Of a stretch of 64,000 nucleotides of DNA, positions 4,280-24,611 are shown one piece after another. A program made the position numbers and the translations under genes. Position 1 is the first letter of the stretch; each line of letters starts with the position of its first letter. This DNA is from Rhodanobacteraceae bacterium (lineage in GTDB: Bacteria; Pseudomonadota; Gammaproteobacteria; Xanthomonadales; SZUA-5), in contig JAYUUS010000124.1 of assembly GCA_043754435.1 (NCBI GenBank), positions 35,716 through 99,715 on the forward strand. Direction: 5' to 3'. Under the pieces are notes generated by a model. That model did no database searches. It was not told where the DNA came from and saw only the letters and a program-made list of their open reading frames with translations.

Positions 4280-6514
4280 ATGGCAACGACGTTTCAAAGC
4301 TTTGATACCAAAGCGCTCAAGGATTACGCGGAAGAAGCGTATCTAAACTATTCCATGTATGTAATTTTGGACCGGGCGCTGCCATTTTTGGGCGATGGCT
4401 TGAAGCCGGTGCAGCGGCGCATTATTTACGCGATGAGCGAACTTGGCTTGGAGCATGCGTCCAAACCAATGAAAAGCGCGCGCACCGTAGGCGATGTGAT
4501 TGGTAAATATCACCCGCACGGTGATTCCGCCTGCTATGACGCGCTGGTGTTGATGGCGCAGCCGTTTGCGTTTCGCTATCCATTGATTGAAGGCCAAGGC
4601 AACTTTGGCTCGCCGGATGACCCGAAAAGTTTCGCGGCGATGCGCTACACCGAGGCCAAACTCACCAAATTTGCCGCCACTTTGTTGGAGGAGGTGGATT
4701 TAGGAACGGTCGATTTTAAGCCCAATTACGATGGCAAACAGCTAGAACCGGTATGGCTACCCTCACGTCTGCCGCATTTGCTGCTCAATGGCACCACCGG
4801 CATTGCGGTGGGCATGGCTACCGATATTCCGCCGCATAATTTGCGCGAAGTGGTGAGTGCCTGCATCCGTTTACTGGATGACCCGGAAGCGACCACGTGC
4901 GATTTGTGCGAGCACATTCAAGGGCCGGATTTTTGCACCGCAGGCGAAATCATTACGCCGCGCGCTGACTTGCTGAAAATGTACGAAACTGGCTCCGGTT
5001 CGGTGCGCCAGCGCGCCATTTATTTGCGTGAGAATGGCAATATTGTAATCACCGCCTTACCGCATCAAGTCAGCCCAGCGAAAATTCAGGAGCAAATCGC
5101 TGAGCAAATGCGGCTGAAAAAGCTGCCGATGATTGAAGACATGCGTGATGAAGGCGATCACACCACGCCGGTGCGCGTAGTGCTGATTCCGCGCAGCAAT
5201 CGCGTGGATATTGACGAGCTGATGGCACATTTATTTGCCACTACCGATATGGAGCGCAGCTACCGAGTCAATATCAATTTGATCGGTTTAGATCGCTTGC
5301 CACGCGTTAAGGGCTTAAAAACGATTCTGACCGAATGGCTGGGTTTTCGTACTGCTTCCGTGCGCCGCAGATTGGAAACGCGCTTAGAAAAAGTGGATCG
5401 TCGCCTGCATTTATTAGCGGGATTGTTGATCGCCTATTTGAATTTGGATGAGGTGATTCGCATCATTCGCAGCGAAGATGAGCCAAAACCAGTGCTGATT
5501 GCGCGCTTTGCCTTGAGCGAAGCGCAGGCCGAGGCTATTTTAGAAACCAAGTTAAGGCATTTAGCCAAGCTTGAAGAGATGAAAATTCGCGGCGAGCAAA
5601 AGGAGTTGGAAGACGAGCGCGACGATTTAACCGGTATTTTGGCATCGAAAGCGCGCATGAAAACACTGATCAAGCGCGAATTAGAGAGCGACGCGAAAGC
5701 GCACGGCGATGCGCGCCGCAGCCCCATTGTGGAGCGCAGTGCTGCAAAAGCGCTGAGTGAGCAAGACTTAACGCCGAGCGAGCCTTCGACCGTGATTTTG
5801 TCCGACAAAGGCTGGGCGCGTGCCGCAAAAGGCCACGAAATCGACCCTTCCGCACTGAGCTATCGCGAAGGTGACTCGGTGCTGAGCTTTTCGCGTGGAC
5901 GCAGCAACTACCAAGCTGCGTTCTTCGACACCACCGGGCGCGCCTATTCCACGCCGACCCACACGCTGCCGAGCGCACGCGGCCAGGGTGAACCCCTTAC
6001 CGGACGCTTTGATCTAGCCCCCGGCGCACGCTTTGTGACTTGCGTCAGCGCGGAAAACGAGGCGATGCTGTTGCTCACATCAAGCCACGGCTATGGCTTT
6101 ATCACCAAGTTTGAGAACTTGATCAGCCGCAACCGCGCAGGCAAAGCGATGTTGAACTTAAGCGAAGGTGCGACGGTGTCACCGCCGCTGCTGCTACCTG
6201 CACCGATCGAGCAATGCTGGATCGCCGTTGCCACCACCGCCGGGCATTTATTGGTATTCCCTCTGCGTGATCTACCCGCGCTCGAAAAGGGCAAAGGCAA
6301 CAAGATTATTAGCGTGCCAGCGACGAAAAGTGCTTCGGAAAAAGTCGTTTCAGTGGCATTGATGACGGAAAAGCAAACACTAGTTGTGGTGGCCGGTGGC
6401 CGCATCACCAAGCTTAAAGGCAATGACTTAGCCGCGTATCGCGGTGAACGCACCCAACGCGGCGCGTTGTTGCCGCGCGGTTTGCAGCGGGTTGATCGGT
6501 TGGAAGTGGAGTAA
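4280..6514 (+). CDS. parC: DNA topoisomerase IV subunit A
   Basis: 744 aa. The N-terminus has ...[40 protein letters not shown] and the active-site AAMRYTE. Its size and the lack of a long GyrA-type C-terminal extension fit ParC. Confidence 0.9.
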
Positions 6515-6913: not shown

Positions 6914-7065
6914 ATGCATTTGAACGACTGAATCACGCACAAGACTTATTTTCAGCGGGGCGCTTCGAAACAGCACTCAATGCCTGCGGCGGCACTGGAA
7001 TTTCAGAGTGCGAATTGCCCGGTCGATTGATGTGTGATCTGCAAATACGGTTGCTGCGATCTTGA
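6910..7065 (+). CDS. Small hypothetical ORF (51 aa) overlapping the TfoX-like stop (ATGA)
   Basis: ATG 6910 overlaps TGA 6911-6913. It translates MNAFERLNHAQDLFSAGRFETALNAC... (faintly TPR-like) and is below the track cutoff. Only the coupling and the open frame support it. Confidence 0.2.
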   Translation: MNAFERLNHAQDLFSAGRFETALNACGGTGISECELPGRLMCDLQIRLLRS

Positions 7066-7068
7066 TTT

Positions 7069-7476
7069 TTAACTCAATAACACCACCGGCGGCAAAAGAT
7101 TCTGCACTTTCGCACGTTTGGCAAATGCTTTATCGAAACTCAGCAGCGCAGTACACCGCACGCTTTTCGCATGGTGTAGGGCATCACTAAAATCTAGTCC
7201 GTGCTGATAGGCATCAATCGCTGTTAGCACTGCCGCGCGGTCCTCTACTGCGATGTGCGCAATGCCGACTAGGGCATTGAACACACCCGTGATTTCCGCA
7301 CGCGTCATCTTGTAAAAACCGCGCATTACCCATTCGAATTCAAGCACCACAGTGATGCTAATGAAACTCCGGTCTGACATGGCAAGTATCGCCGAAGGGC
7401 GCTGTTTTGCCGCCTGCAGATCCTCTGAGTCGTCAATGAAAAACCGTGCGAGGACATTAGTATCCAGGCTTTTCAC
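7069..7476 (-). CDS. vapC: PIN-domain toxin (VapC family)
   Basis: 135 aa beginning MKSLDTNVLARFFIDD... (PIN acidic residues). It overlaps the upstream antitoxin gene by 4 bp. Confidence 0.85.
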   Translation of the reverse strand: MKSLDTNVLARFFIDDSEDLQAAKQRPSAILAMSDRSFISITVVLEFEWVMRGFYKMTRAEITGVFNALVGIAHIAVEDRAAVLTAIDAYQHGLDFSDALHHAKSVRCTALLSFDKAFAKRAKVQNLLPPVVLLS

Positions 7477-7727
7477 TGTGGTGATTTTGCCAGCATTGTA
7501 GCCGCATCAAAGTCGGCCAAGCTGCGCGCGTTGCCACTGGCGCGGGCTTTAATCATGCCCGCTAAATTGCTGAGATCTACCTTGGGCACGGCGCGCAACA
7601 CGGTTAAATTCACGCCATCAGTGAGCTCTTCCAGTTGCAACGATGCGCCAGCGGCCAATCCCAGCCTATGCCGCAATGCTGCAGGCAACACGATTTGGCC
7701 TTTAGATGAAACGCGGACGGTAGACAT
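7473..7727 (-). CDS. vapB: AbrB/SpoVT-type antitoxin (VapB)
   Basis: 84 aa. MSTVRVSSKGQIVLPAALRHRLGL is a swapped-hairpin AbrB/MazE-like DNA-binding motif. The gene sits upstream of and overlaps the PIN gene. Confidence 0.8.
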   Translation of the reverse strand: MSTVRVSSKGQIVLPAALRHRLGLAAGASLQLEELTDGVNLTVLRAVPKVDLSNLAGMIKARASGNARSLADFDAATMLAKSPQ

Positions 7728-7892
7728 TCATAGGCTCACAAAATATTTTTCACAACACTACTCTGACTTACTTAGTAAGACAATAAATTTTAAGTCGGAC
7801 GCTTTCAGACAAATCTGACCCCGCGTTCCGACTGCACTGAGTTTGCAGCGATGTAACTAGTGCAAAGAAACCTGAACATCCAAGCATTAGAT

Positions 7893-7944
7893 GCAGTGAA
7901 GCGCAAGCCGCTGAGATTGCTTCACTTCGTTCGCAAAGACGAAA
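7893..7944. repeat. Partial copy of the GCGAGCG.AGCGAAGCAATC-type palindromic element
   Basis: gagattgcttcacttcgttcgcaaagacgaa matches the reverse complement of the left arm of the 12190-12270 element. A short opposing arm gcagtgaagcg lies at 7893. Track ORF 7768..8082(-) runs through it. Confidence 0.55.
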
Positions 7945-7967
7945 CGTTGATAACTCCGCTAAGTTAA

Positions 7968-9512
7968 TCAACTCGGCTGCATAAAGCCCAAATCTGACCC
8001 TGGCACCGACAAAATCGGGTCGTTCATGAAGTTTAAATTCGGAAATATCGTTAACCGATCCGCTTCTTGCAACCCGTACCATTTTGCCAAAGTGTGCGCG
8101 TATTGATCGGTTGAAAGCGTTGGAATTAAGCGCCCGCCGTCAATATCGTCGGGGTTAGTAGACGTTGGTTTCAGACTCGGCATTTTTCCATAAATGCGAT
8201 TGCCGTTGACCGCGCCGCCGAAGACCAAGTGGTGTCCGCCCCAGCCGTGGTCGGTGCCATCGCCGTTATTCGATAAGGTTCGGCCAAAATCGCTGGCGGT
8301 AAAAGCGGTGACGTTATTGGCAAGCGTGGGGTCAACGATGTCTAGGACTTGATAAAAGGCTTTGACCGATTGCGATAAATCTTTTAGCAAATCCGGGTGA
8401 TCGGCGTTTTGATTGTCGTGCGTATCAAAGCCGCCGGTTGCGGCAAAAAACAGCTGGCGCTTCATCGCCAAAGTGCCGCGCGCGGCGATCACGCGTGCAA
8501 TCATCAGCAGCTGTTGGGCGATACGCGGCAAGGCATCGACGTTATTCGGCCCCTGCACCAAACCATTGGCAGTCCAGAACGGCGCAAATTTTGGTGCTGA
8601 CGCCGGATGCGCATCAATCGCCACCGAAACCTGCGCTGCGGTTTCAATGGAACGCCGCGTCTTAATCACATAAGCGCGCTCGAATGCGTGCCCTGGCGTG
8701 GCAGAAGCGGCAAGGTCTTGCAAGGCTTTAAAGCTTAAACAGCGTCGACTGCGATAGTCATTGGTTGGCCCGCAATTGGCATCAGGCGTATTGATGGCAC
8801 CAATTTCTTCCACTCCGTAGGTGTTCATAAAATACGGTGCAACCTGCACGCCCGACTGGAACACATTGTCGCCATCCAAAGATACATTCATAGACAGCGT
8901 TTGATTGGGATTGTCGGCACGGAAAATGTCCGCCAATCGCCCACCCCAACCGGTGCGATCCGTGGCATCCGCGCGCGGCGTTTGCCACTGCACGGACTGA
9001 TCCGAATGCGAAAAAAGCTGCGCGGGCAGCAAGATTCCGGGATTGGTTTGATACATGGTTTTGGTCACCGGACGCACCAGCGTGCCGACATTAGCGACGA
9101 CCGCCGCTTTACCCGCGTCGAACATTTCCTTTAAACCAGTCATTACCGGATGCAGGCCAAATTGACCGCCGCCAATGGGCGCTACCGAGGGATTTAGCAG
9201 CAACAAATTAGCTTGTGGGATTGCCAAATTTGACGCGTCGCCCGCGACACCATTGCCTAAGCGCAAAGCCCGATAATCCGCATAGCCCGAGGCATCGCGC
9301 GGCACCACCATATTGAAGCAATCATTACCGCCATACAGATAAATGCAAACCAATGCTTTGTAGTCGTTCGGGCCAGTACCGCGCAGCAGAGTGCCGCCGA
9401 GCAAACTAGATTGCGCCAGCGCTAGCTTTGCTGGCAGCAGGCCAAATGCCGCGCCACCGGCAGTCGCCATCAAGGCGCGTTGAATAAAATCGCGACGTTG
9501 TAGGTAGCTCAT
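7968..9512 (-). CDS. DUF1501 family protein (sulfatase-like fold) with a Tat signal
   Basis: 514 aa with a twin-arginine leader MSYLQRRDFIQRALMATAGGAAFG. The motifs GGNDxxN, FSHSDQ, GGFDTHDNQ and DHGWGG are typical of DUF1501. It is paired with DUF1800 as usual. Confidence 0.8.
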   Translation of the reverse strand: MSYLQRRDFIQRALMATAGGAAFGLLPAKLALAQSSLLGGTLLRGTGPNDYKALVCIYLYGGNDCFNMVVPRDASGYADYRALRLGNGVAGDASNLAIPQANLLLLNPSVAPIGGGQFGLHPVMTGLKEMFDAGKAAVVANVGTLVRPVTKTMYQTNPGILLPAQLFSHSDQSVQWQTPRADATDRTGWGGRLADIFRADNPNQTLSMNVSLDGDNVFQSGVQVAPYFMNTYGVEEIGAINTPDANCGPTNDYRSRRCLSFKALQDLAASATPGHAFERAYVIKTRRSIETAAQVSVAIDAHPASAPKFAPFWTANGLVQGPNNVDALPRIAQQLLMIARVIAARGTLAMKRQLFFAATGGFDTHDNQNADHPDLLKDLSQSVKAFYQVLDIVDPTLANNVTAFTASDFGRTLSNNGDGTDHGWGGHHLVFGGAVNGNRIYGKMPSLKPTSTNPDDIDGGRLIPTLSTDQYAHTLAKWYGLQEADRLTIFPNLNFMNDPILSVPGSDLGFMQPS

Positions 9513-17634: not shown

Positions 17635-18393
17635 ATGACTGCCGTGGCAATCCAGAACCTTCAGTTTGCATGGCCCAGAACATCGGGAACCCAAGCACAG
17701 ACCAGCCCGGCACCCATTCTCGAAATTGCCAATTTCACTCTGGCAAAGGGTGAAAAATTATTTTTGAAAGGTGCGAGTGGCAGCGGTAAAAGTACGCTGT
17801 TACAGCTGATCGCCGGCGTACTCGTGCCGACGACAGGCGAAATAACCGTGCTGGATCAGCCCATTTCTAGGCTTTCAAGCGGTAAGCGTGATCAATTCCG
17901 CGCCGATCATCTAGGCTTCGTATTTCAACTGTTCAATCTGCTCGGCTTTTTAAATGTCGTCGACAATGTGCTGCTGCCGTGCCAATTTTCCAAGTTGCGT
18001 ACACAACGCGCGTTGACTCAAGGCGCTAGTTTGATAGATGCCGCAACCACGCTATTGACTGCGCTCGGTTTGCCCAGAGCAACGCGCGAACAACCGGTCA
18101 GTCGCTTAAGTGTCGGGCAACAGCAGCGGGTCGCTTTGGCGCGCGCGCTGCTTGGCGCACCGGGTTTGATTATTTGCGATGAACCGACTAGCGCGATTGA
18201 TGTTGAGCACCGCGAACGCTTTATGCAGCTGCTGCTGGCGCAGGTAGAAAAGTCTGGTGCAGCGCTGCTGTTTGTAAGCCATGACCCTAGCTTGGAGCGC
18301 TATTTTGATCGAACCGTGCATTTAGCAGACATCAATCAAGCCAAGCCATTAACCGAAGAGGCCGCACAAAATTTGGCGGGGGCAATTTCATGA
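17635..18393 (+). CDS. ABC transporter ATP-binding protein (MacB/LolD-like)
   Basis: 252 aa with Walker A GASGSGKSTLL, signature LSVGQQQRVALARAL and Walker B LIICDEPTSAID. Confidence 0.9.
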   Translation: MTAVAIQNLQFAWPRTSGTQAQTSPAPILEIANFTLAKGEKLFLKGASGSGKSTLLQLIAGVLVPTTGEITVLDQPISRLSSGKRDQFRADHLGFVFQLFNLLGFLNVVDNVLLPCQFSKLRTQRALTQGASLIDAATTLLTALGLPRATREQPVSRLSVGQQQRVALARALLGAPGLIICDEPTSAIDVEHRERFMQLLLAQVEKSGAALLFVSHDPSLERYFDRTVHLADINQAKPLTEEAAQNLAGAIS

Positions 18394-19685
18394 ACTTGCT
18401 CTCTTTGGCGTTAAAAAGCTTGCGCAATCGCTGGTTCAGTGCGTTTCTGTGCGTGCTCACCATTGGCTTAAGTACCGCACTATTACTTGCTGTTGAGCAT
18501 ATCCGCGCCAGCGCGCGCAGCAGCTTTCAAAGTACGGTCAGCGGCACGGATTTGATTGTGGGTGCGCGCACCGGTGCCGTCCCGCTGATGCTCTACACCG
18601 TATTTCATGTGGGCGAAGCCACGAATAATGTCAGTTGGGCCAGCTATCAGCGCTATGCCAATTTAAGCTCAGTCAGCTGGACGATCCCGATCTCGCTTGG
18701 CGACTCCTACCAAGGCTATCGCGTCGTCGGCACCACGGATGCTCTGTTTCAGCACTATCGTTTTGGCGCCAAACGCGCCCTGGAATTTAGCCAAGGTCAG
18801 GCCTTTAGTAATACCGACGCGCAAGCCGTTGTCGGTGCTGCGGTCGCTGAGAAGCTTGGGTTAAAATTGGGCGCAAAGCTTGCGGTGTCGCATGGGCTAG
18901 GAAATGTCGGCTTCATCAAGCATGAGCATGCGCAGCAGACTCTAATTGGGGTGTTGGCGGCTACGGGCACGCCAATTGACCAATCGGTATTCGTCAATCT
19001 AGCCGCGATTGAGCACATGCATGAAGGTTTTAATGGAAGCGCGCGTTTTGACGGCAGCGCGCGTTTAGCTCCGGCTAGACCCGATGATCACGAGAGCCAT
19101 GAAACCCATGAACCGCACGCCGCTAAACCGCCGAAAGCGATCACCGCGTTTTTCATGGGCTTAAAAGTGCGCCCGATGGCGTTGGCCTTGCAGCGCAAAA
19201 TTAACGATGACGAATCTGAGCCACTGCTGGCTATTTTACCGACAGCGACCCTACAGCAGCTTTGGCAGCTCGTGGGTGTCGCCGAGCAAGCGCTGGGCTT
19301 AGTATCCATTGCCGTCGTCGCCACCGGCCTGCTCGGCATGATGATGGCGCTGATCGCGACTTTAGAGCAGCGTCGCCGGGAAATGGCAATTCTGCGCTCC
19401 GTGGGCGCACGCGGGCATCAGATTTTTTCGCTTTTACTGCTGGAAAGTGCGGCGCTGACCGCCGCTGGACTGGCCTTGGGCGCGGTACTCATATCTATTT
19501 TGCTAGCGCTTTTTGCAAATCAACTGGCGAGCCGCTATGGGCTGTTTTTAAGCGCCAATTGGCTCAGCGCTCGCACCCTATTTGGCCTAGGACTGATCTT
19601 TTTGACAAGCGTGGTGTTAGCGATTTTGCCTGCGGCTGCGGCTTATCGAAGTGCGTTGGCAGATGGGCTGTCGGTGAAGCTTTGA
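18390..19685 (+). CDS. ABC transporter permease, FtsX-like (MacB-type periplasmic domain) with a His-rich loop
   Basis: 431 aa, with a 4-bp overlap with the ATPase gene. It has an N-terminal TM, a large periplasmic domain and a C-terminal FtsX 3-TM bundle (...REMAILRSVGAR...). The His-rich stretch DDHESHETHEPH is encoded at about 19084-19120. Confidence 0.85.
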   Translation: MNLLSLALKSLRNRWFSAFLCVLTIGLSTALLLAVEHIRASARSSFQSTVSGTDLIVGARTGAVPLMLYTVFHVGEATNNVSWASYQRYANLSSVSWTIPISLGDSYQGYRVVGTTDALFQHYRFGAKRALEFSQGQAFSNTDAQAVVGAAVAEKLGLKLGAKLAVSHGLGNVGFIKHEHAQQTLIGVLAATGTPIDQSVFVNLAAIEHMHEGFNGSARFDGSARLAPARPDDHESHETHEPHAAKPPKAITAFFMGLKVRPMALALQRKINDDESEPLLAILPTATLQQLWQLVGVAEQALGLVSIAVVATGLLGMMMALIATLEQRRREMAILRSVGARGHQIFSLLLLESAALTAAGLALGAVLISILLALFANQLASRYGLFLSANWLSARTLFGLGLIFLTSVVLAILPAAAAYRSALADGLSVKL

Positions 19686-19766: not shown

Positions 19767-19994
19767 ATGATTAACGTGCACGAAGCGAAAACCAATTTTT
19801 CAAAACTGCTTGACCAAGCGCACGCAGGACAAGAAATTATTTTATCAAAAGCTGGGAAGCCTTATGCACGTCTAGTACCACTGGTATCTGAAGCGCAATC
19901 CCGGATTCCAGGACTCTTACCGGAAATTGATACTTCGGCCTTTTTTGAACCGTTGCCAGAATCTGAGCTTTCTTTGTGGGAAGGCACAGCATGA
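19767..19994 (+). CDS. Phd/YefM-family antitoxin
   Basis: 75 aa. MINVHEAKTNFSKLLDQAHAGQEIILSKAGKPYARLVPL is the classic Phd/YefM N-terminus. RBS GGAGA is present, and the stop overlaps the toxin ATG (ATGA). Confidence 0.85.
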   Translation: MINVHEAKTNFSKLLDQAHAGQEIILSKAGKPYARLVPLVSEAQSRIPGLLPEIDTSAFFEPLPESELSLWEGTA

Positions 19995-20377
19995 AGGTTT
20001 TGCTCGATACCCATACGCTACTCTGGTGGTACGCAAATGACCCACGTTTATCCGTATATGTAAGCGATATAATCCGCACGAAGTCAACTGAAGTCCTCGT
20101 CAGTGCTGCAAGCGCTTGGGAAATTGCGACCAAAGCGAGGGTCGGCAAGCTCTCCGGCGTAGAACGTTTAACTTCCGAATTTGACACGCTAATTTTGCAG
20201 GGCGGGTTTAAACATCTAGCAATAACAAATCGCCACGCCCTACTTGCGGGAAGCTTTGTTCATGTGCATCGCGATCCATTTGATCGAATGCTTGCTGCGC
20301 AGGGGTTAATTGAAAATGCTTTATTGCTCAGTAACGACCGCGAATTAAAAGCATTTGGCGCACAAGTCGCTTGGTAA
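19991..20377 (+). CDS. vapC: PIN-domain toxin (VapC family)
   Basis: Starts at ATG 19991 (MKVLLDTHTLLWW...). The sequences ...SAASAWEIATK... and ...HRDPFDRMLAAQ are typical of this PIN subfamily. Confidence 0.85.
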   Translation: MKVLLDTHTLLWWYANDPRLSVYVSDIIRTKSTEVLVSAASAWEIATKARVGKLSGVERLTSEFDTLILQGGFKHLAITNRHALLAGSFVHVHRDPFDRMLAAQGLIENALLLSNDRELKAFGAQVAW

Positions 20378-21193: not shown

Positions 21194-21296
21194 TTTGTGT
21201 TAACCCTTCGCCAGCCGTGTTGCGAGACCAATCGAATTTTGTAAAGTCAGCGTGCACGTGCGACCATCATTTGACGATTACGTTGAGACTTTGCTG

Positions 21297-22634
21297 ATGA
21301 GCGAATTTGGAACCCCTTCAATAACGCTCCAAACGGACGCCGCGCCAGTTCGCATTGCGCAGCTTCGCGTGCACGAAGTTGGGCCTTTTGTGGACTTCTC
21401 GCTGGATTTTCCAGCTAGCTCGGATAATGACTTGGCCGAGGTGCATATTTTTACCGGGCCAAATGGCAGCGGTAAATCAACGCTGCTCGCAGCAATATCT
21501 GCGCTTTTTGCCAGTTGGCCAATCGGCGCCAAGGAGCTTGAACGATTATCACGTTCTGATTTTGCCTCAATCACGGTAAAAATTGACGCGAACGGGGGCA
21601 ACCTCCGATTGGGGCTTCCAAGCAAAATCGCGGATGAAAACATTTTAGTAAAGGACAGGATAGCAATTTCGCTGCCGCCGGACTCCTGGGTAAAAACTAC
21701 ATTATTTCAGTTGCTCAACGAGAAACGTAGTGGGCAACACAATCACCTAGCTTTCGGTGTACTAACTTACTCTGCAGCAAAGCAATTTCGCTCCGGAATT
21801 ATTGAGTCATATGACGCGCCCTCGGCGGAATTAAGTCGGCGCACCGCGTCCGTTTTCGGCCGCGAGCCGAATGATTCGGCAGTGCAGTGGCTGGCGAATA
21901 CCTTGACCAATATTTCGCTTGCTAAAACTGATGGTGATAGCGCTGCTGCCGCGACCTACGAAGCCAGTATTAACGAGATTTGTCAGGCGGTATCGCTTGT
22001 GGTGGGAGCGTCGTTTTCCTTAAAACTTAATCGAAGACCGCTAGAAGTCATGGCAGTTTGGGCCGGGCAAAGCATTCCTGTGGCACAGTTGCCAGATGGC
22101 TTGAAATCAGTGCTGAGTTTACTTGCTGACATTTCAATGCGGCTAGATGCGATGAATTGGGAACATCCTGAAGCTATCTCTAAGCGCCCATTCGTGCTGC
22201 TCTTAGACGAAATCGACGTGCATTTGCACCCCAAATGGCAGCGTCAAATTGTTTCAGTTTTACAGCGCAGCTTTCCCAATGCGCAGATTTTTGTTTCAAC
22301 GCACAGCCCATTTGTGGTCGCGTCCGTGAACGATGCGTGGGTCTATTCCCTGGATCCGAGCAAAAACCAAGCCATTGCTGAGAAATCTGGTGCGGGCCAA
22401 AGTTTGTTGACGGTGATCCAAGATGTGTTTGACATCGACGAGCAGTTTGATCCGGAAACTGAGGCTCTTTTCGACAAATTTTATGCTGAGCGAAACCTTG
22501 CGATGCGAACCAAACAAGTCGAACGGCTGAAGGTTTTGGGCGCGCAGTTGAGTGATCGGGGCGCGGAAGTCGATGACATTGTCAATTCGGAAATTCATCA
22601 AGTGGAACGCAAAATTGCCATGCCTGCGAACTGA
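21297..22634 (+). CDS. AAA/ABC-type ATPase, PtuA-like (Septu-type defence ATPase candidate)
   Basis: Walker A GPNGSGKS (nt 21456-21479), Walker B-like FVLLLDEIDVHLHPKWQ and STHSPFV are present. There is no TM segment and no ABC transporter partner. The start is ambiguous: ATG 21297 or GTG 21252. Confidence 0.7.
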   Translation: MSEFGTPSITLQTDAAPVRIAQLRVHEVGPFVDFSLDFPASSDNDLAEVHIFTGPNGSGKSTLLAAISALFASWPIGAKELERLSRSDFASITVKIDANGGNLRLGLPSKIADENILVKDRIAISLPPDSWVKTTLFQLLNEKRSGQHNHLAFGVLTYSAAKQFRSGIIESYDAPSAELSRRTASVFGREPNDSAVQWLANTLTNISLAKTDGDSAAAATYEASINEICQAVSLVVGASFSLKLNRRPLEVMAVWAGQSIPVAQLPDGLKSVLSLLADISMRLDAMNWEHPEAISKRPFVLLLDEIDVHLHPKWQRQIVSVLQRSFPNAQIFVSTHSPFVVASVNDAWVYSLDPSKNQAIAEKSGAGQSLLTVIQDVFDIDEQFDPETEALFDKFYAERNLAMRTKQVERLKVLGAQLSDRGAEVDDIVNSEIHQVERKIAMPAN

Positions 22635-22677
22635 TGCGTATGGTTTTGTTTGGACTAAAAACAGAAACTTCGCTGAC

Positions 22678-23238
22678 ATGATGCCCTTTGTCCGCAGTGA
22701 AGCGCCTGATTGCTTGACTGTGATTGCTCCCAGCACTTGGCCGCTGGGCAAAGAGTGTGATCGCGAAACAAGAAAGCGACTATTTGAAGCATCTGGAGAT
22801 CGCTGCGCGTTCTGCGATGGTTTAATGAAAATAACGAGCAAAGCAACTGTCGAACATTTTCGGCCAAAATCCAAATTTCCAAGTCTAAAAGCAGTGTGGA
22901 GCAATCTTTTTCCCTGCTGTGACCAGTGCCAGTCGGCAAAATTAGAAAAGTTTGACGAAGCGCTGTTGAAACCGGATGAAGCGAGTTACAGCTTTCTGAA
23001 ATATTTCGTTTGTAACTTTCGCAGCGGCGAAATAGAAATCGATCCAAACAGCGCGCCGGACGAACAAATACGGGCCGCTATCACAATACAAATCTATAGC
23101 CTCAATGCCACTCCACGGTGCAATGCAAGACGCAAAGAACGCCGTCATTGGCTTGCGGAAGTGTCGCAATTCGGCCAAGGCAGCGTGGAGCTCACGGACC
23201 TAGACGACTGGCAATTTCGCTTCTTTTTGCAACGGTGA
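22678..23238 (+). CDS. HNH-type nuclease, TIGR02646/PtuB-like
   Basis: The 186 aa begin MMPFVRSEAPDCL....W. The motif CAFCDG...(S)KATVEHFRPKSKFP...WSNLFPCCDQCQSAK matches the CxxC...EHfxPks...WxNL...CxxCNxxK pattern of the family. Confidence 0.7.
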   Translation: MMPFVRSEAPDCLTVIAPSTWPLGKECDRETRKRLFEASGDRCAFCDGLMKITSKATVEHFRPKSKFPSLKAVWSNLFPCCDQCQSAKLEKFDEALLKPDEASYSFLKYFVCNFRSGEIEIDPNSAPDEQIRAAITIQIYSLNATPRCNARRKERRHWLAEVSQFGQGSVELTDLDDWQFRFFLQR

Positions 23239-23437: not shown

Positions 23438-24611
23438 ATGAATGCGATCGCCGCTGATTTCAAACGCGCCTGGCGCGCCCTGACGCGCTCACCCAGCTAC
23501 GCGCTGATGGCGATGCTGGTTTTTGCGATTGGCATTGGTGCCACCATGACGCTGTTTGGCGTGGTCAAAGCGGTCGTGCTGAACCCCCTGTCCTATCCTG
23601 AGCAAGATCAGCTAATCCAAATTCGCGAATCAAGCCTGCCTGATTTCCCAAAATTTTCCATGGCACCTGGGAAGTTCATGATCTGGCAAAAGCAAAGCAC
23701 GGCGTTCAAGGCTATGGGGATGTATCAAGCGCTGAGTTTTAATTTGACCGGGCGCGACCAGCCGCAACGCCTGAATACGCTCGCGGTGACGGACGGCTAC
23801 TTCGATACCCTGGGCGCGCCGTTGGCATCGGGCCGAGGTTTCGCGGCGGCTGACTTGGCGAATCAGGCGGATTCTGTGGTGCTCAGTTACGCGACCTGGA
23901 TGGCGCTGTTTGCCGGTGATCGCAATGCCATCGGGCAGAACATCACATAGAATGACCGTAGCTACAGCATTATCGGCGTGACTTCCGAACAAGTGCTCTC
24001 GAAAGCCAAGCTGTATACGCTTTGGCGCGTGGGGGCCGAGGAAGCGAATGAAATCGGCGGCCATTACGTCGGCGTCATTGGGCGGCTGAAGGCGGGGAAG
24101 ACCGAGGCCGAGGCCAATAGCGAACTCAATCGCATCGCCGAACAGATGAAAAAGCAATATGACGACGCGCGTGGTGACGACTTCGCTTGCCAAAGATGCG
24201 CTGGGTGCGGCGAACGATCAGCTTTCGTTGCTGATGGTTGGTGCGCTGCTGGTGCTGGTGATTGCTCCTTGCTGGCCTCGGTTTGTACGGCACGATCGCT
24301 TATAGCGTCACCCAAGCCAGCAAAGAAATCGGTGTGCGCTTGGCGATGTGCGCCAGCCAAAATACGGTGCTGCAGGCGGTATTGCGACAGGGTTTGACGC
24401 TTGCTGGCATGGTGCAGTGATCGGCATTGGCATTGCACTGATTAGCGCACGCGTGCTTAAAGGCTTTGTGTTTGGCATCAGCACGCGCGACCCGTTGACC
24501 TATGTCGTGATCGCCAGCACCATAATGTTGGTCGCCCTTGTGGCGGCTGCGTTGCCCGCTTGGCGCGCCACGCGGGTGAGTCCGATAGTGGCGTTACGGG
24601 CGAATGATTGA
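23438..24611 (+). pseudogene. Decayed ADOP-type (FtsX-family, duplicated) ABC permease gene
   Basis: The N-terminus MNAIAADFKRAWRALTRSPSYALMAMLVFAIGIGA is typical. An in-frame TAG lies at 23948-23950. Frame changes occur near 24180 and 24415. The first FtsX TM (SLAKDALGAANDQLSLLMVGALLVLVIA) is fused directly to the last FtsX module (LAGLGLYGTIAYSVTQASKEIGVRLA...VSPIVALRAND). This implies loss of several hundred codons relative to the roughly 800-aa family norm. Confidence 0.75.

Follow-up and report, generated by a model that had tools for sequence, protein, structure and literature searches.

The stretch analysed here (the window, 64,000 nucleotides (nt) of a contig from a Rhodanobacteraceae bacterium) carries between positions 21237 and 23238 two genes on one strand, ptuA and then ptuB, which encode an ATPase and an HNH nuclease of the kind that make up the Septu anti-phage system, and which are separated by a spacer of 43 nt (22635-22677). 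In all related loci the two are found together. An earlier note, made from the letters of the window, had described both open reading frames (ORFs), their motifs and a mini-ORF filling the spacer, and all of these are present where it had placed them, with the minor correction that the spacer had been counted as 44 nt. The features are listed below, with conservation in PtuA scored over 112 homologues and lengths of proteins given in amino acids (aa).

21237-21296, forward strand: conserved 60-nt leader travelling with the cassette; homology between unrelated contexts starts sharply at its TTTTGTA
21297-22634, forward strand: ptuA, ABC-type (AAA_15/AAA_21) ATPase of Septu, 445 aa (PADLOC, Pfam, AlphaFold2 model compared with Foldseek)
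21456-21479, forward strand: PtuA Walker A, GPNGSGKS (G54-S61, with K60); G54, N56, G57, G59 and K60 invariant
22089-22106, forward strand: equivalent of the ABC signature motif in PtuA, LPDGLK (265-270); L265 and G268 invariant, P266, D267, L269 and K270 conserved in at least 90%
22197-22232, forward strand: PtuA Walker B, catalytic Glu and D-loop region, LLLDEIDVHLHP (301-312, with D304 and E305); E305, H309, L310, H311 and P312 invariant, D304 conserved in at least 90%
22296-22310, forward strand: PtuA H-loop, STHSP (334-338, with H336); T335, H336, S337 and P338 invariant
22634-22681, forward strand: bridging mini-ORF MRMVLFGLKTETSLT, 15 codons plus stop; frame open in seven of eight spacer haplotypes
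22678-23238, forward strand: ptuB, TIGR02646-type HNH nuclease of Septu, 186 aa (PADLOC, NCBIfam, AlphaFold2 model compared with Foldseek)
22804-22941, forward strand: PtuB HNH core, C43xxC46-D47, E59-H60 (22852-22857), N76 (22903-22905) and C81xxC84-Q85xxK88 (22918-22941), from conservation and the AlphaFold2 model

The PtuA and PtuB proteins

The first protein belongs to the PtuA family by sequence and by fold. The PADLOC hidden Markov model (HMM) PDLC00281 (PtuA1/PtuA) matched it nearly end to end (E=7e-109, 363 bits, residues 17-440 against positions 3-442 of 448), and the Pfam domains AAA_21 (79 bits) and AAA_15 (53 bits) both scored above their cut-offs. Its AlphaFold2 (AF2) model, built from an alignment of 112 sequences, reached a predicted local distance difference test (pLDDT) of 86.3, and all of the top 50 Foldseek matches in the PDB were PtuA chains, among them 8eea_D of E. 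coli Septu (E=3e-17). The ATPase motifs, that is, the Walker A Lys, the Walker B Asp-Glu, the signature and the H-loop, are all intact, with residues 301-315 reading LLLDEIDVHLHPKWQ, and LPDGLK corresponds to LSDGQR in the PtuA of Ec78 (PMC12819146).

Likewise, the second protein was matched nearly end to end by the PADLOC model PDLC00351 (PtuB1/PtuB; E=3e-52), and TIGR02646 of NCBIfam gave 55.6 bits against a curated cut-off of 52.15. Its AF2 model (97-sequence alignment, pLDDT 94.6) found PtuB in all of its top 11 PDB matches with Foldseek, including E. coli Septu 8eea_G (E=4.5e-6); the E. coli Septu structures 8eea and 8ee4 both figure among the matches of the two models. The PtuB motifs are CAFC (43-46), VEHFRPKS (with H60), WSNLF (with N76) and CCDQCQSAK (80-88), and residues C43, C46, D47, H60, N76, C81, C84 and K88 are invariant in 111 PtuB sequences, and E59 is invariant too. 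A sequence search of the PDB returned PtuA, PtuB and, weakly, AriA, and nothing else. The two PADLOC E-values put the match far beyond chance, and nothing substantive sets the window proteins apart from the two models. The assignment to Septu made in the earlier note is thus borne out, with strong full-length HMM matches for both proteins and a TIGR02646 score above its cut-off. The type of system is a catalogued one, of which the window holds a new locus, and this subfamily is already covered by existing Septu HMMs. Both proteins are new sequences, whose nearest database relatives, metagenomic in both cases, are 91% (PtuA) and 89% (PtuB) identical.

The limits of both genes could be fixed by comparison. 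The frame of ptuA is open to 22634 from either GTG 21252 or ATG 21297, and the GTG had been entertained as the start of a longer protein. We rejected it in favour of ATG 21297, since close homologues are all of 444-447 aa and begin with MSEFG, and since the leader carries 1-nt indels in relatives upstream of this ATG, which makes it non-coding. An identical 445-aa PtuA is on record (P0001), and K60 of this form is the K75 of the long ORF. A worry that the ATPase, at 445 aa, is rather short proved unfounded, as the best PADLOC model of PtuA has 448 positions and is matched over 3-442. For ptuB, the source annotation and public calls (P0231) give 221 aa from ATG 22573 (22573-23238), with an overlap of 62 nt with ptuA. 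Such upstream starts (221 or 228 aa) were discarded, as the PtuB frame is stopped within the spacer in most relatives and homologues are of about 186 aa, beginning at an invariant ATGATGCC; the stops in this frame also mean that the spacer is not an N-terminal extension of PtuB. These comparisons point to the 186-aa form as the true product, and the database start of ptuB, with its call overlapping ptuA, is corrected in this way.

A peculiarity of PtuB lies at the end of its HNH site. The earlier note had remarked on a Gln where the family Asn was expected; a Gln is indeed found at Q85, but it is fixed in 110 of the 111 subfamily members, which marks it as a trait of the subfamily and not as a lesion or a sign of decay. 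In the AF2 model, H60 closes strand 1, N76 stands before strand 2 and Q85 lies on the next helix, a beta-beta-alpha-metal layout in which Q85 would occupy the position of the last metal ligand. In a set of 50 PtuBs of greater distance, a first CxxC...H motif allowed 26 to be parsed; four of these 26 have a second CxxC, all with Asn there, and the other 22 have a different layout. The invariant H-N-Q site may endow this PtuB subfamily with its own preference for metal or substrate, which is a less likely novelty than the translational relay discussed below. As a separate observation, the ptuB of an 87%-identical relative (L096, 2290-2571) has a premature TAG at codon 94 (E94 in the window), either an inactivated gene or an assembly error.

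Cassette boundaries and identity of the system

Pairs whose PtuA is 79-91% identical occur in three unrelated genomic contexts (related loci are designated by L numbers).

Context 1, after DUF455: the window, L001 and L091
Context 2, after a GmrSD_N (DUF262) gene and before the gene of a 293-aa secreted protein: L003-L006, L094 and L178
Context 3, between an arginase gene and an RND membrane-fusion gene: L007-L010

BLASTN homology among these contexts is limited to the region from ~21233 to ~23240, comprising the 60-nt leader, ptuA, the spacer and ptuB, and ends at the stop codon. Within the cassette the G+C content is 0.47-0.51, against 0.54-0.60 in the flanks. Altogether, the three contexts, the confined homology and the lower G+C content identify a mobile accessory cassette. 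The comparison across relatives that the earlier note had proposed showed a pair that is neither core nor syntenic, with three contexts as described and no PtuA or PtuB within 10 kb of the DUF455 orthologue in any of 80 GTDB genomes, a weak test of presence and absence given that these orthologues are only 52-65% identical. GTDB holds no close species representative of the host; the window DUF455 is closest to sequences of Lysobacterales, Thiothrix and other gammaproteobacteria, with 24 proteins at least 90% identical to it. Among possible carriers, no plasmid was found with a close relative (identity over the whole match of at most 29%), nor any phage or IMG/VR sequence (at most 25% for the only phage matches that span most of the protein, while short local stretches in phage and IMG/VR contigs reach 31-44%), and a scan of JGI metagenomes gave distant PtuAs only. 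Neither terminal inverted repeats nor target duplications were found flanking the cassette.

The leader itself contains two blocks that are invariant in 11 loci (alignment A4), TTTTGTA (21237-21243) and TGCGACCATC (21259-21268), as well as the palindrome GCACGTGC, and a weak Shine-Dalgarno-like GAG (21285-21287) precedes ptuA. A candidate promoter can be drawn from a -35-like TTGTAA (21239-21244), a 17-nt spacer and an extended -10-like TGcGACCAT (21259-21267), and the leader may be a promoter of the extended -10 type or an operator for a regulator.

Some of the related loci show features of their own. In L003, a GmrSD_N (DUF262) gene, with a type IV restriction-like defence domain, lies at 7000-8037, ~640 nt upstream of ptuA, which places the cassette in a defence-island-like setting there. 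In one sub-clade of the cassette, ptuB is followed after ~70 nt by the gene of the 293-aa protein, which has a signal-peptide-like N-terminus and no Pfam domain and is 53-93% identical among loci (L003, 10731-11612; L178, 2213-3094; L094, 2704-3585; L092, 2282-2638); neither the window nor the arginase-context loci have this gene, which could be an optional third member or a neighbour. Directly downstream of ptuB, L010 carries (5062-5170) about three tandem copies of a ~31-nt unit, catttgccgtgtcgccttccggcgagactc, which is absent from other loci.

Alternative identities for the pair were weighed against these data. PtuAB pairs occurring in type I-A retrons have been named 'type II Septu' (PMC12640716), and the window pair might be the effector module of such an Ec78/Ec83-like retron, checked by the multicopy single-stranded DNA (msDNA) made by an adjacent reverse transcriptase (RT) and non-coding RNA (ncRNA). 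The best PDB matches by sequence and fold do include PtuA and PtuB of retrons Ec83 and Ec78, NCBIfam calls TIGR02646 a 'retron system putative HNH endonuclease', and the PADLOC models ATPase_I-A and HNH_I-A match too. However, the Pfam list of the neighbouring genes, from ~4 kb upstream to ~6 kb downstream, contains no RT domain, Rfam at its gathering threshold finds three tRNAs and no retron RNA in the 64 kb, and the retron-Ec78 equivalogs stay far under their cut-offs (NF041760, 129 of 500 bits; NF041761, 68 of 150 bits). Moreover, the window PtuA, at 445 aa, lacks the N-terminal extension of the ~550-aa retron PtuAs and aligns to Ec83 PtuA only from residue 237 on, and the unit that moves between contexts comprises ptuA and ptuB alone. 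A retron association was therefore rejected as most improbable, and the absence of an RT and of a retron RNA nearby makes this a stand-alone (type I) Septu.

It is just as hard to see in the pair another ABC-ATPase and nuclease couple that merely resembles Septu, such as PARIS AriA/AriB, Gabija, an OLD-family system or an AbiE-like toxin system. AriA gives weak matches (83.8 bits over a local stretch in PADLOC, E=2.5e-4 in the PDB) and Pfam describes AAA_21 as 'putative AbiEii toxin', but the PtuA model matches from end to end with 363 bits, AriA only locally with at most 84, and the partner is a PtuB-family HNH protein instead of a TOPRIM protein (AriB, OLD) or a helicase (GajB). A housekeeping pair for DNA repair or recombination, RecF-, SbcC- or Rad50-like and without a part in immunity, is very unlikely too: RecF, SbcC and SMC_N match weakly and locally, within the P-loop and signature regions, with scores far beneath the cut-offs (RecF, 34.5 of 172 bits), whereas the pair is accessory and mobile, and the nonsense-interrupted ptuB of L096 is what would be expected of a dispensable, potentially toxic gene.

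We thus conclude that 21237-23238 is very probably a stand-alone (type I) Septu anti-phage system on a compact, horizontally moved cassette of 2 kb. As far as sequence can tell, the phage-defence module proposed in the earlier note is supported, by the PtuA and PtuB HMM matches and by a pair that is neither core nor syntenic. Several points weigh against this conclusion. Identity to characterised PtuA and PtuB proteins is only 15-26%, too low for a confident transfer of trigger, oligomeric state or substrate (DNA or tRNA), and the anti-phage role of the subfamily is predicted by analogy. The Pfam HNH and HNH_5 scores of PtuB fall slightly under their cut-offs, and with Gln as the putative last HNH metal ligand, not Asn or His, nuclease activity is to be taken as presumptive. 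Furthermore, L091, which alone among close relatives has the same flank, carries the pair as well, and a scan for consensus sigma-70 promoters and terminators gave nothing above background and did not flag the candidate promoter of the leader. For the biology of defence systems the value of the locus is small, as it adds one more Septu from an uncultured gammaproteobacterium; its cleanly bounded minimal mobile unit (60-nt leader, ptuA and ptuB), seen in three contexts, nonetheless offers a ready construct for a Septu subfamily from the environment whose active site is H-N-Q.

The spacer mini-ORF and translation of ptuB

The 43-nt spacer is bridged by the 15-codon mini-ORF, whose ATG shares 1 nt with the TGA of ptuA and whose own TGA overlaps the ATG of ptuB by 4 nt (ATGA, within ATGATG). 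The earlier note saw in this arrangement a relay of translational coupling; the mini-ORF and both of its overlaps stand, and the relay itself has comparative support from the frame, the stops, the Shine-Dalgarno sequences and the overlaps of distant loci. In this regard, the junction between the ptuA stop and the ptuB start in 50 distant metagenomic Septu loci is a 4-nt overlap in 45, a 1-nt overlap in three and a longer one in two, none of them having a spacer, and a 47%-identical relative (L180) shows the ATGA overlap too. The clade of the window has seven long-spacer haplotypes (43, 46, 49, 49, 49, 67 and 82 nt) and one of 19 nt. All eight lengths equal 1 modulo 3 despite at least four independent indels, and the frame of the mini-ORF is open in seven of the eight haplotypes across indels of 3, 6, 24 and 39 nt and a strong divergence of the peptide. 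In each of the seven long spacers this frame runs open from the last base of the ptuA stop (TGATG or TAATG) to the TGA within the ATGATG of ptuB, with the start in L179 being an in-frame ATG two codons later, while the peptides diverge freely (MRMVLFGLKTETSLT, MCKRTVWSSLNKSPDKSPESAPT and MSSFFLDKIRLKTQTT, for example). The spacers hold 21 stop triplets, at ~11-12 independent sites, which fall 13 and 8 into the other two frames and none into that of the mini-ORF. As the haplotypes are related by descent, these figures allow only rough event counts, of ~(1/3)^4 for the indels and ~(2/3)^11 for the stops.

In every haplotype with the mini-ORF, the complementarity of the ptuB start region to the anti-Shine-Dalgarno sequence is essentially nil (dG of 0 to -1.5 kcal/mol), and the two 19-nt spacers without mini-ORF carry a Shine-Dalgarno-like GGAAAAG (-3.5 kcal/mol). 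A spacing of about 20 nt is reported to abolish termination-reinitiation, and -4 and -1 overlaps to be enriched among the subunits of heteromeric complexes (PMC10666635). Two further readings of the spacer were set aside. It shows no conserved RNA structure (z-score -0.45, consensus energy -2.4 kcal/mol, no covariation), which speaks against a structured RNA or riboregulator, and the mini-ORF is no relic of a longer PtuA C-terminus, as the match of PtuA to the PADLOC model of 448 positions extends to the end of that model. Separately, the 67-nt haplotype of L177 (1626-1692) contains an in-frame duplication of 12 nt (aaatcaccagat/aaatcaccagaa), suggesting that spacer length changes by slippage and is tolerated only when the frame is kept.

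A relay from ptuA through the mini-ORF to ptuB offers a coherent and plausible explanation of these patterns, to which we give about an even chance of being right. The fuller history that it suggests is slightly more doubtful: an ancestral 4-nt overlap would have been broken by the insertion of a spacer of 43-82 nt, and selection would have kept a bridging mini-ORF free of sequence constraint, so that a two-step relay maintained the coupled synthesis of a nuclease that is toxic and has no ribosome-binding site of its own. Possibly, the relay might also attenuate, holding PtuA above PtuB as in a 6:2 complex. Against all this stands a serious contender, somewhat short of even, in which the frame of the mini-ORF is open by chance in a spacer that is short and AT-rich, the mini-ORF has no function and ribosomes translate ptuB independently. 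Shuffling leaves a single spacer open in that frame in 22-38% of cases, the peptide is not conserved, L007 and L010 do without a mini-ORF, and common descent keeps the haplotypes from being independent counts. Chance fits less well with eight spacer lengths that are all 1 modulo 3, with none of 21 stops in the one frame and with the retention of both overlap junctions (TGATG or TAATG, and ATGA); nor would it lead one to expect a Shine-Dalgarno-like sequence before ptuB only in the two spacers without a mini-ORF, direct overlaps of 4 or 1 nt in 48 of the 50 distant Septu loci, or the reported loss of reinitiation at ~20 nt (PMC10666635).

The relay from ptuA to ptuB, if real, would have partial counterparts elsewhere. 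Coupling through leader peptides or relays is exemplified by tap-repA of plasmid R1 and repY-repZ of ColIb-P9. Shared with these cases and with -4/-1 coupling (PMC10666635) are a short ORF whose stop overlaps a downstream start devoid of a Shine-Dalgarno sequence and a peptide whose sequence is unimportant. The window differs in that its short ORF is itself coupled upstream by a 1-nt overlap, which would create a putative two-step relay between subunits of one complex. We know of no report of such a two-step relay in a defence operon. The bridging mini-ORF could thus be a natural case of how coupling between the subunits of a toxic complex may survive the loss of gene overlap.

Predicted mode of action and surroundings of the cassette

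The closest model for the window pair is the stand-alone Septu of E. coli, with structures 8EE4, 8EE7 and 8EEA (Li et al. 2024, as cited in PMC13096335) and the EcB88 system. Both share with the window an arrangement of two genes, an ABC-ATPase and then an HNH nuclease, with no retron, and both folds match. In EcB88, residues K43 and D316 of PtuA (Walker A Lys and Walker B) and H75 and N91 of the HNH site are essential (PMC13096335), and the corresponding Walker A Lys, Walker B Asp/Glu and HNH His and Asn are conserved in the window pair. C-terminal helical elements that may serve PtuA-PtuB binding are also predicted: the AF2 monomer models show three C-terminal helices in PtuA (386-441) and three in PtuB (127-171), which would fit the nine-helix PtuA2:PtuB bundle of PMC12819146. 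On the other hand, the window proteins are only ~17-21% identical to those of E. coli Septu, in their PtuB subfamily a Gln comes after a second CxxC knuckle (CCxxCQxxK), and their genes, instead of overlapping, are separated by the 43-nt spacer bridged by the mini-ORF. The type I-A retrons Ec78 (Eco7) and Ec83 (Eco4) have homologous effectors, which gave the best PDB sequence matches (Ec83 PtuA, 8e-25; Ec78 PtuB, 6e-10) and in which ATPase and HNH activities are both required, but the window lacks RT, ncRNA and msDNA, and its PtuA has neither the N-terminal extension nor the msDNA-binding elements.

By analogy with the E. coli systems (PMC13096335, PMC12819146, PMC12640716), a mode of action can be proposed. 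Transcription would start from a promoter in the conserved 60-nt leader, and ptuB, with no Shine-Dalgarno sequence, would probably be translated by termination-reinitiation relayed through the 15-codon mini-ORF. PtuA dimers would oligomerise, into a hexamer in E. coli Septu, and their C-terminal three-helix extensions would grip PtuB by its C-terminal helical domain, in a 6:2 complex. The E. coli Septu forms such a 6:2 PtuA:PtuB complex, in which ATP inhibits DNA nicking (as summarised by PMC12640716 and PMC12819146), and in the window system the nuclease would likewise be kept silent by ATP binding until phage infection lifted the inhibition. PtuB would then cut nucleic acid, either by nicking supercoiled DNA or by cleavage of tRNA-Tyr in its variable loop, depending on the homologue taken as a guide, and phage replication would halt at a cost to host growth.

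In the window, the gene order leading to the cassette is an ABC ATPase with a MacB/FtsX permease, a Phd/PIN toxin-antitoxin pair, DUF455 and then PtuAB, followed by fragments of a MacB-type permease, a small monooxygenase-like gene and an RND pump. The toxin-antitoxin pair (19767-20377), two genes upstream of Septu, consists of a Phd/YefM-type antitoxin of 75 aa and a PIN-domain (VapC-like) toxin in overlapping frames, and its G+C content of 0.47-0.49 is below that of the surrounding genes; together with Septu it forms a small accessory islet, interrupted by DUF455. Downstream of ptuB, a MacB_PCD/FtsX-type permease gene (23438-24611) appears broken into at least three frames (23438-23950, a 170-aa N-terminal piece; 23978-24397; 24348-24611) and is probably a decaying pseudogene, with an intact paralogous pair of ABC ATPase and permease at 17635-19685.

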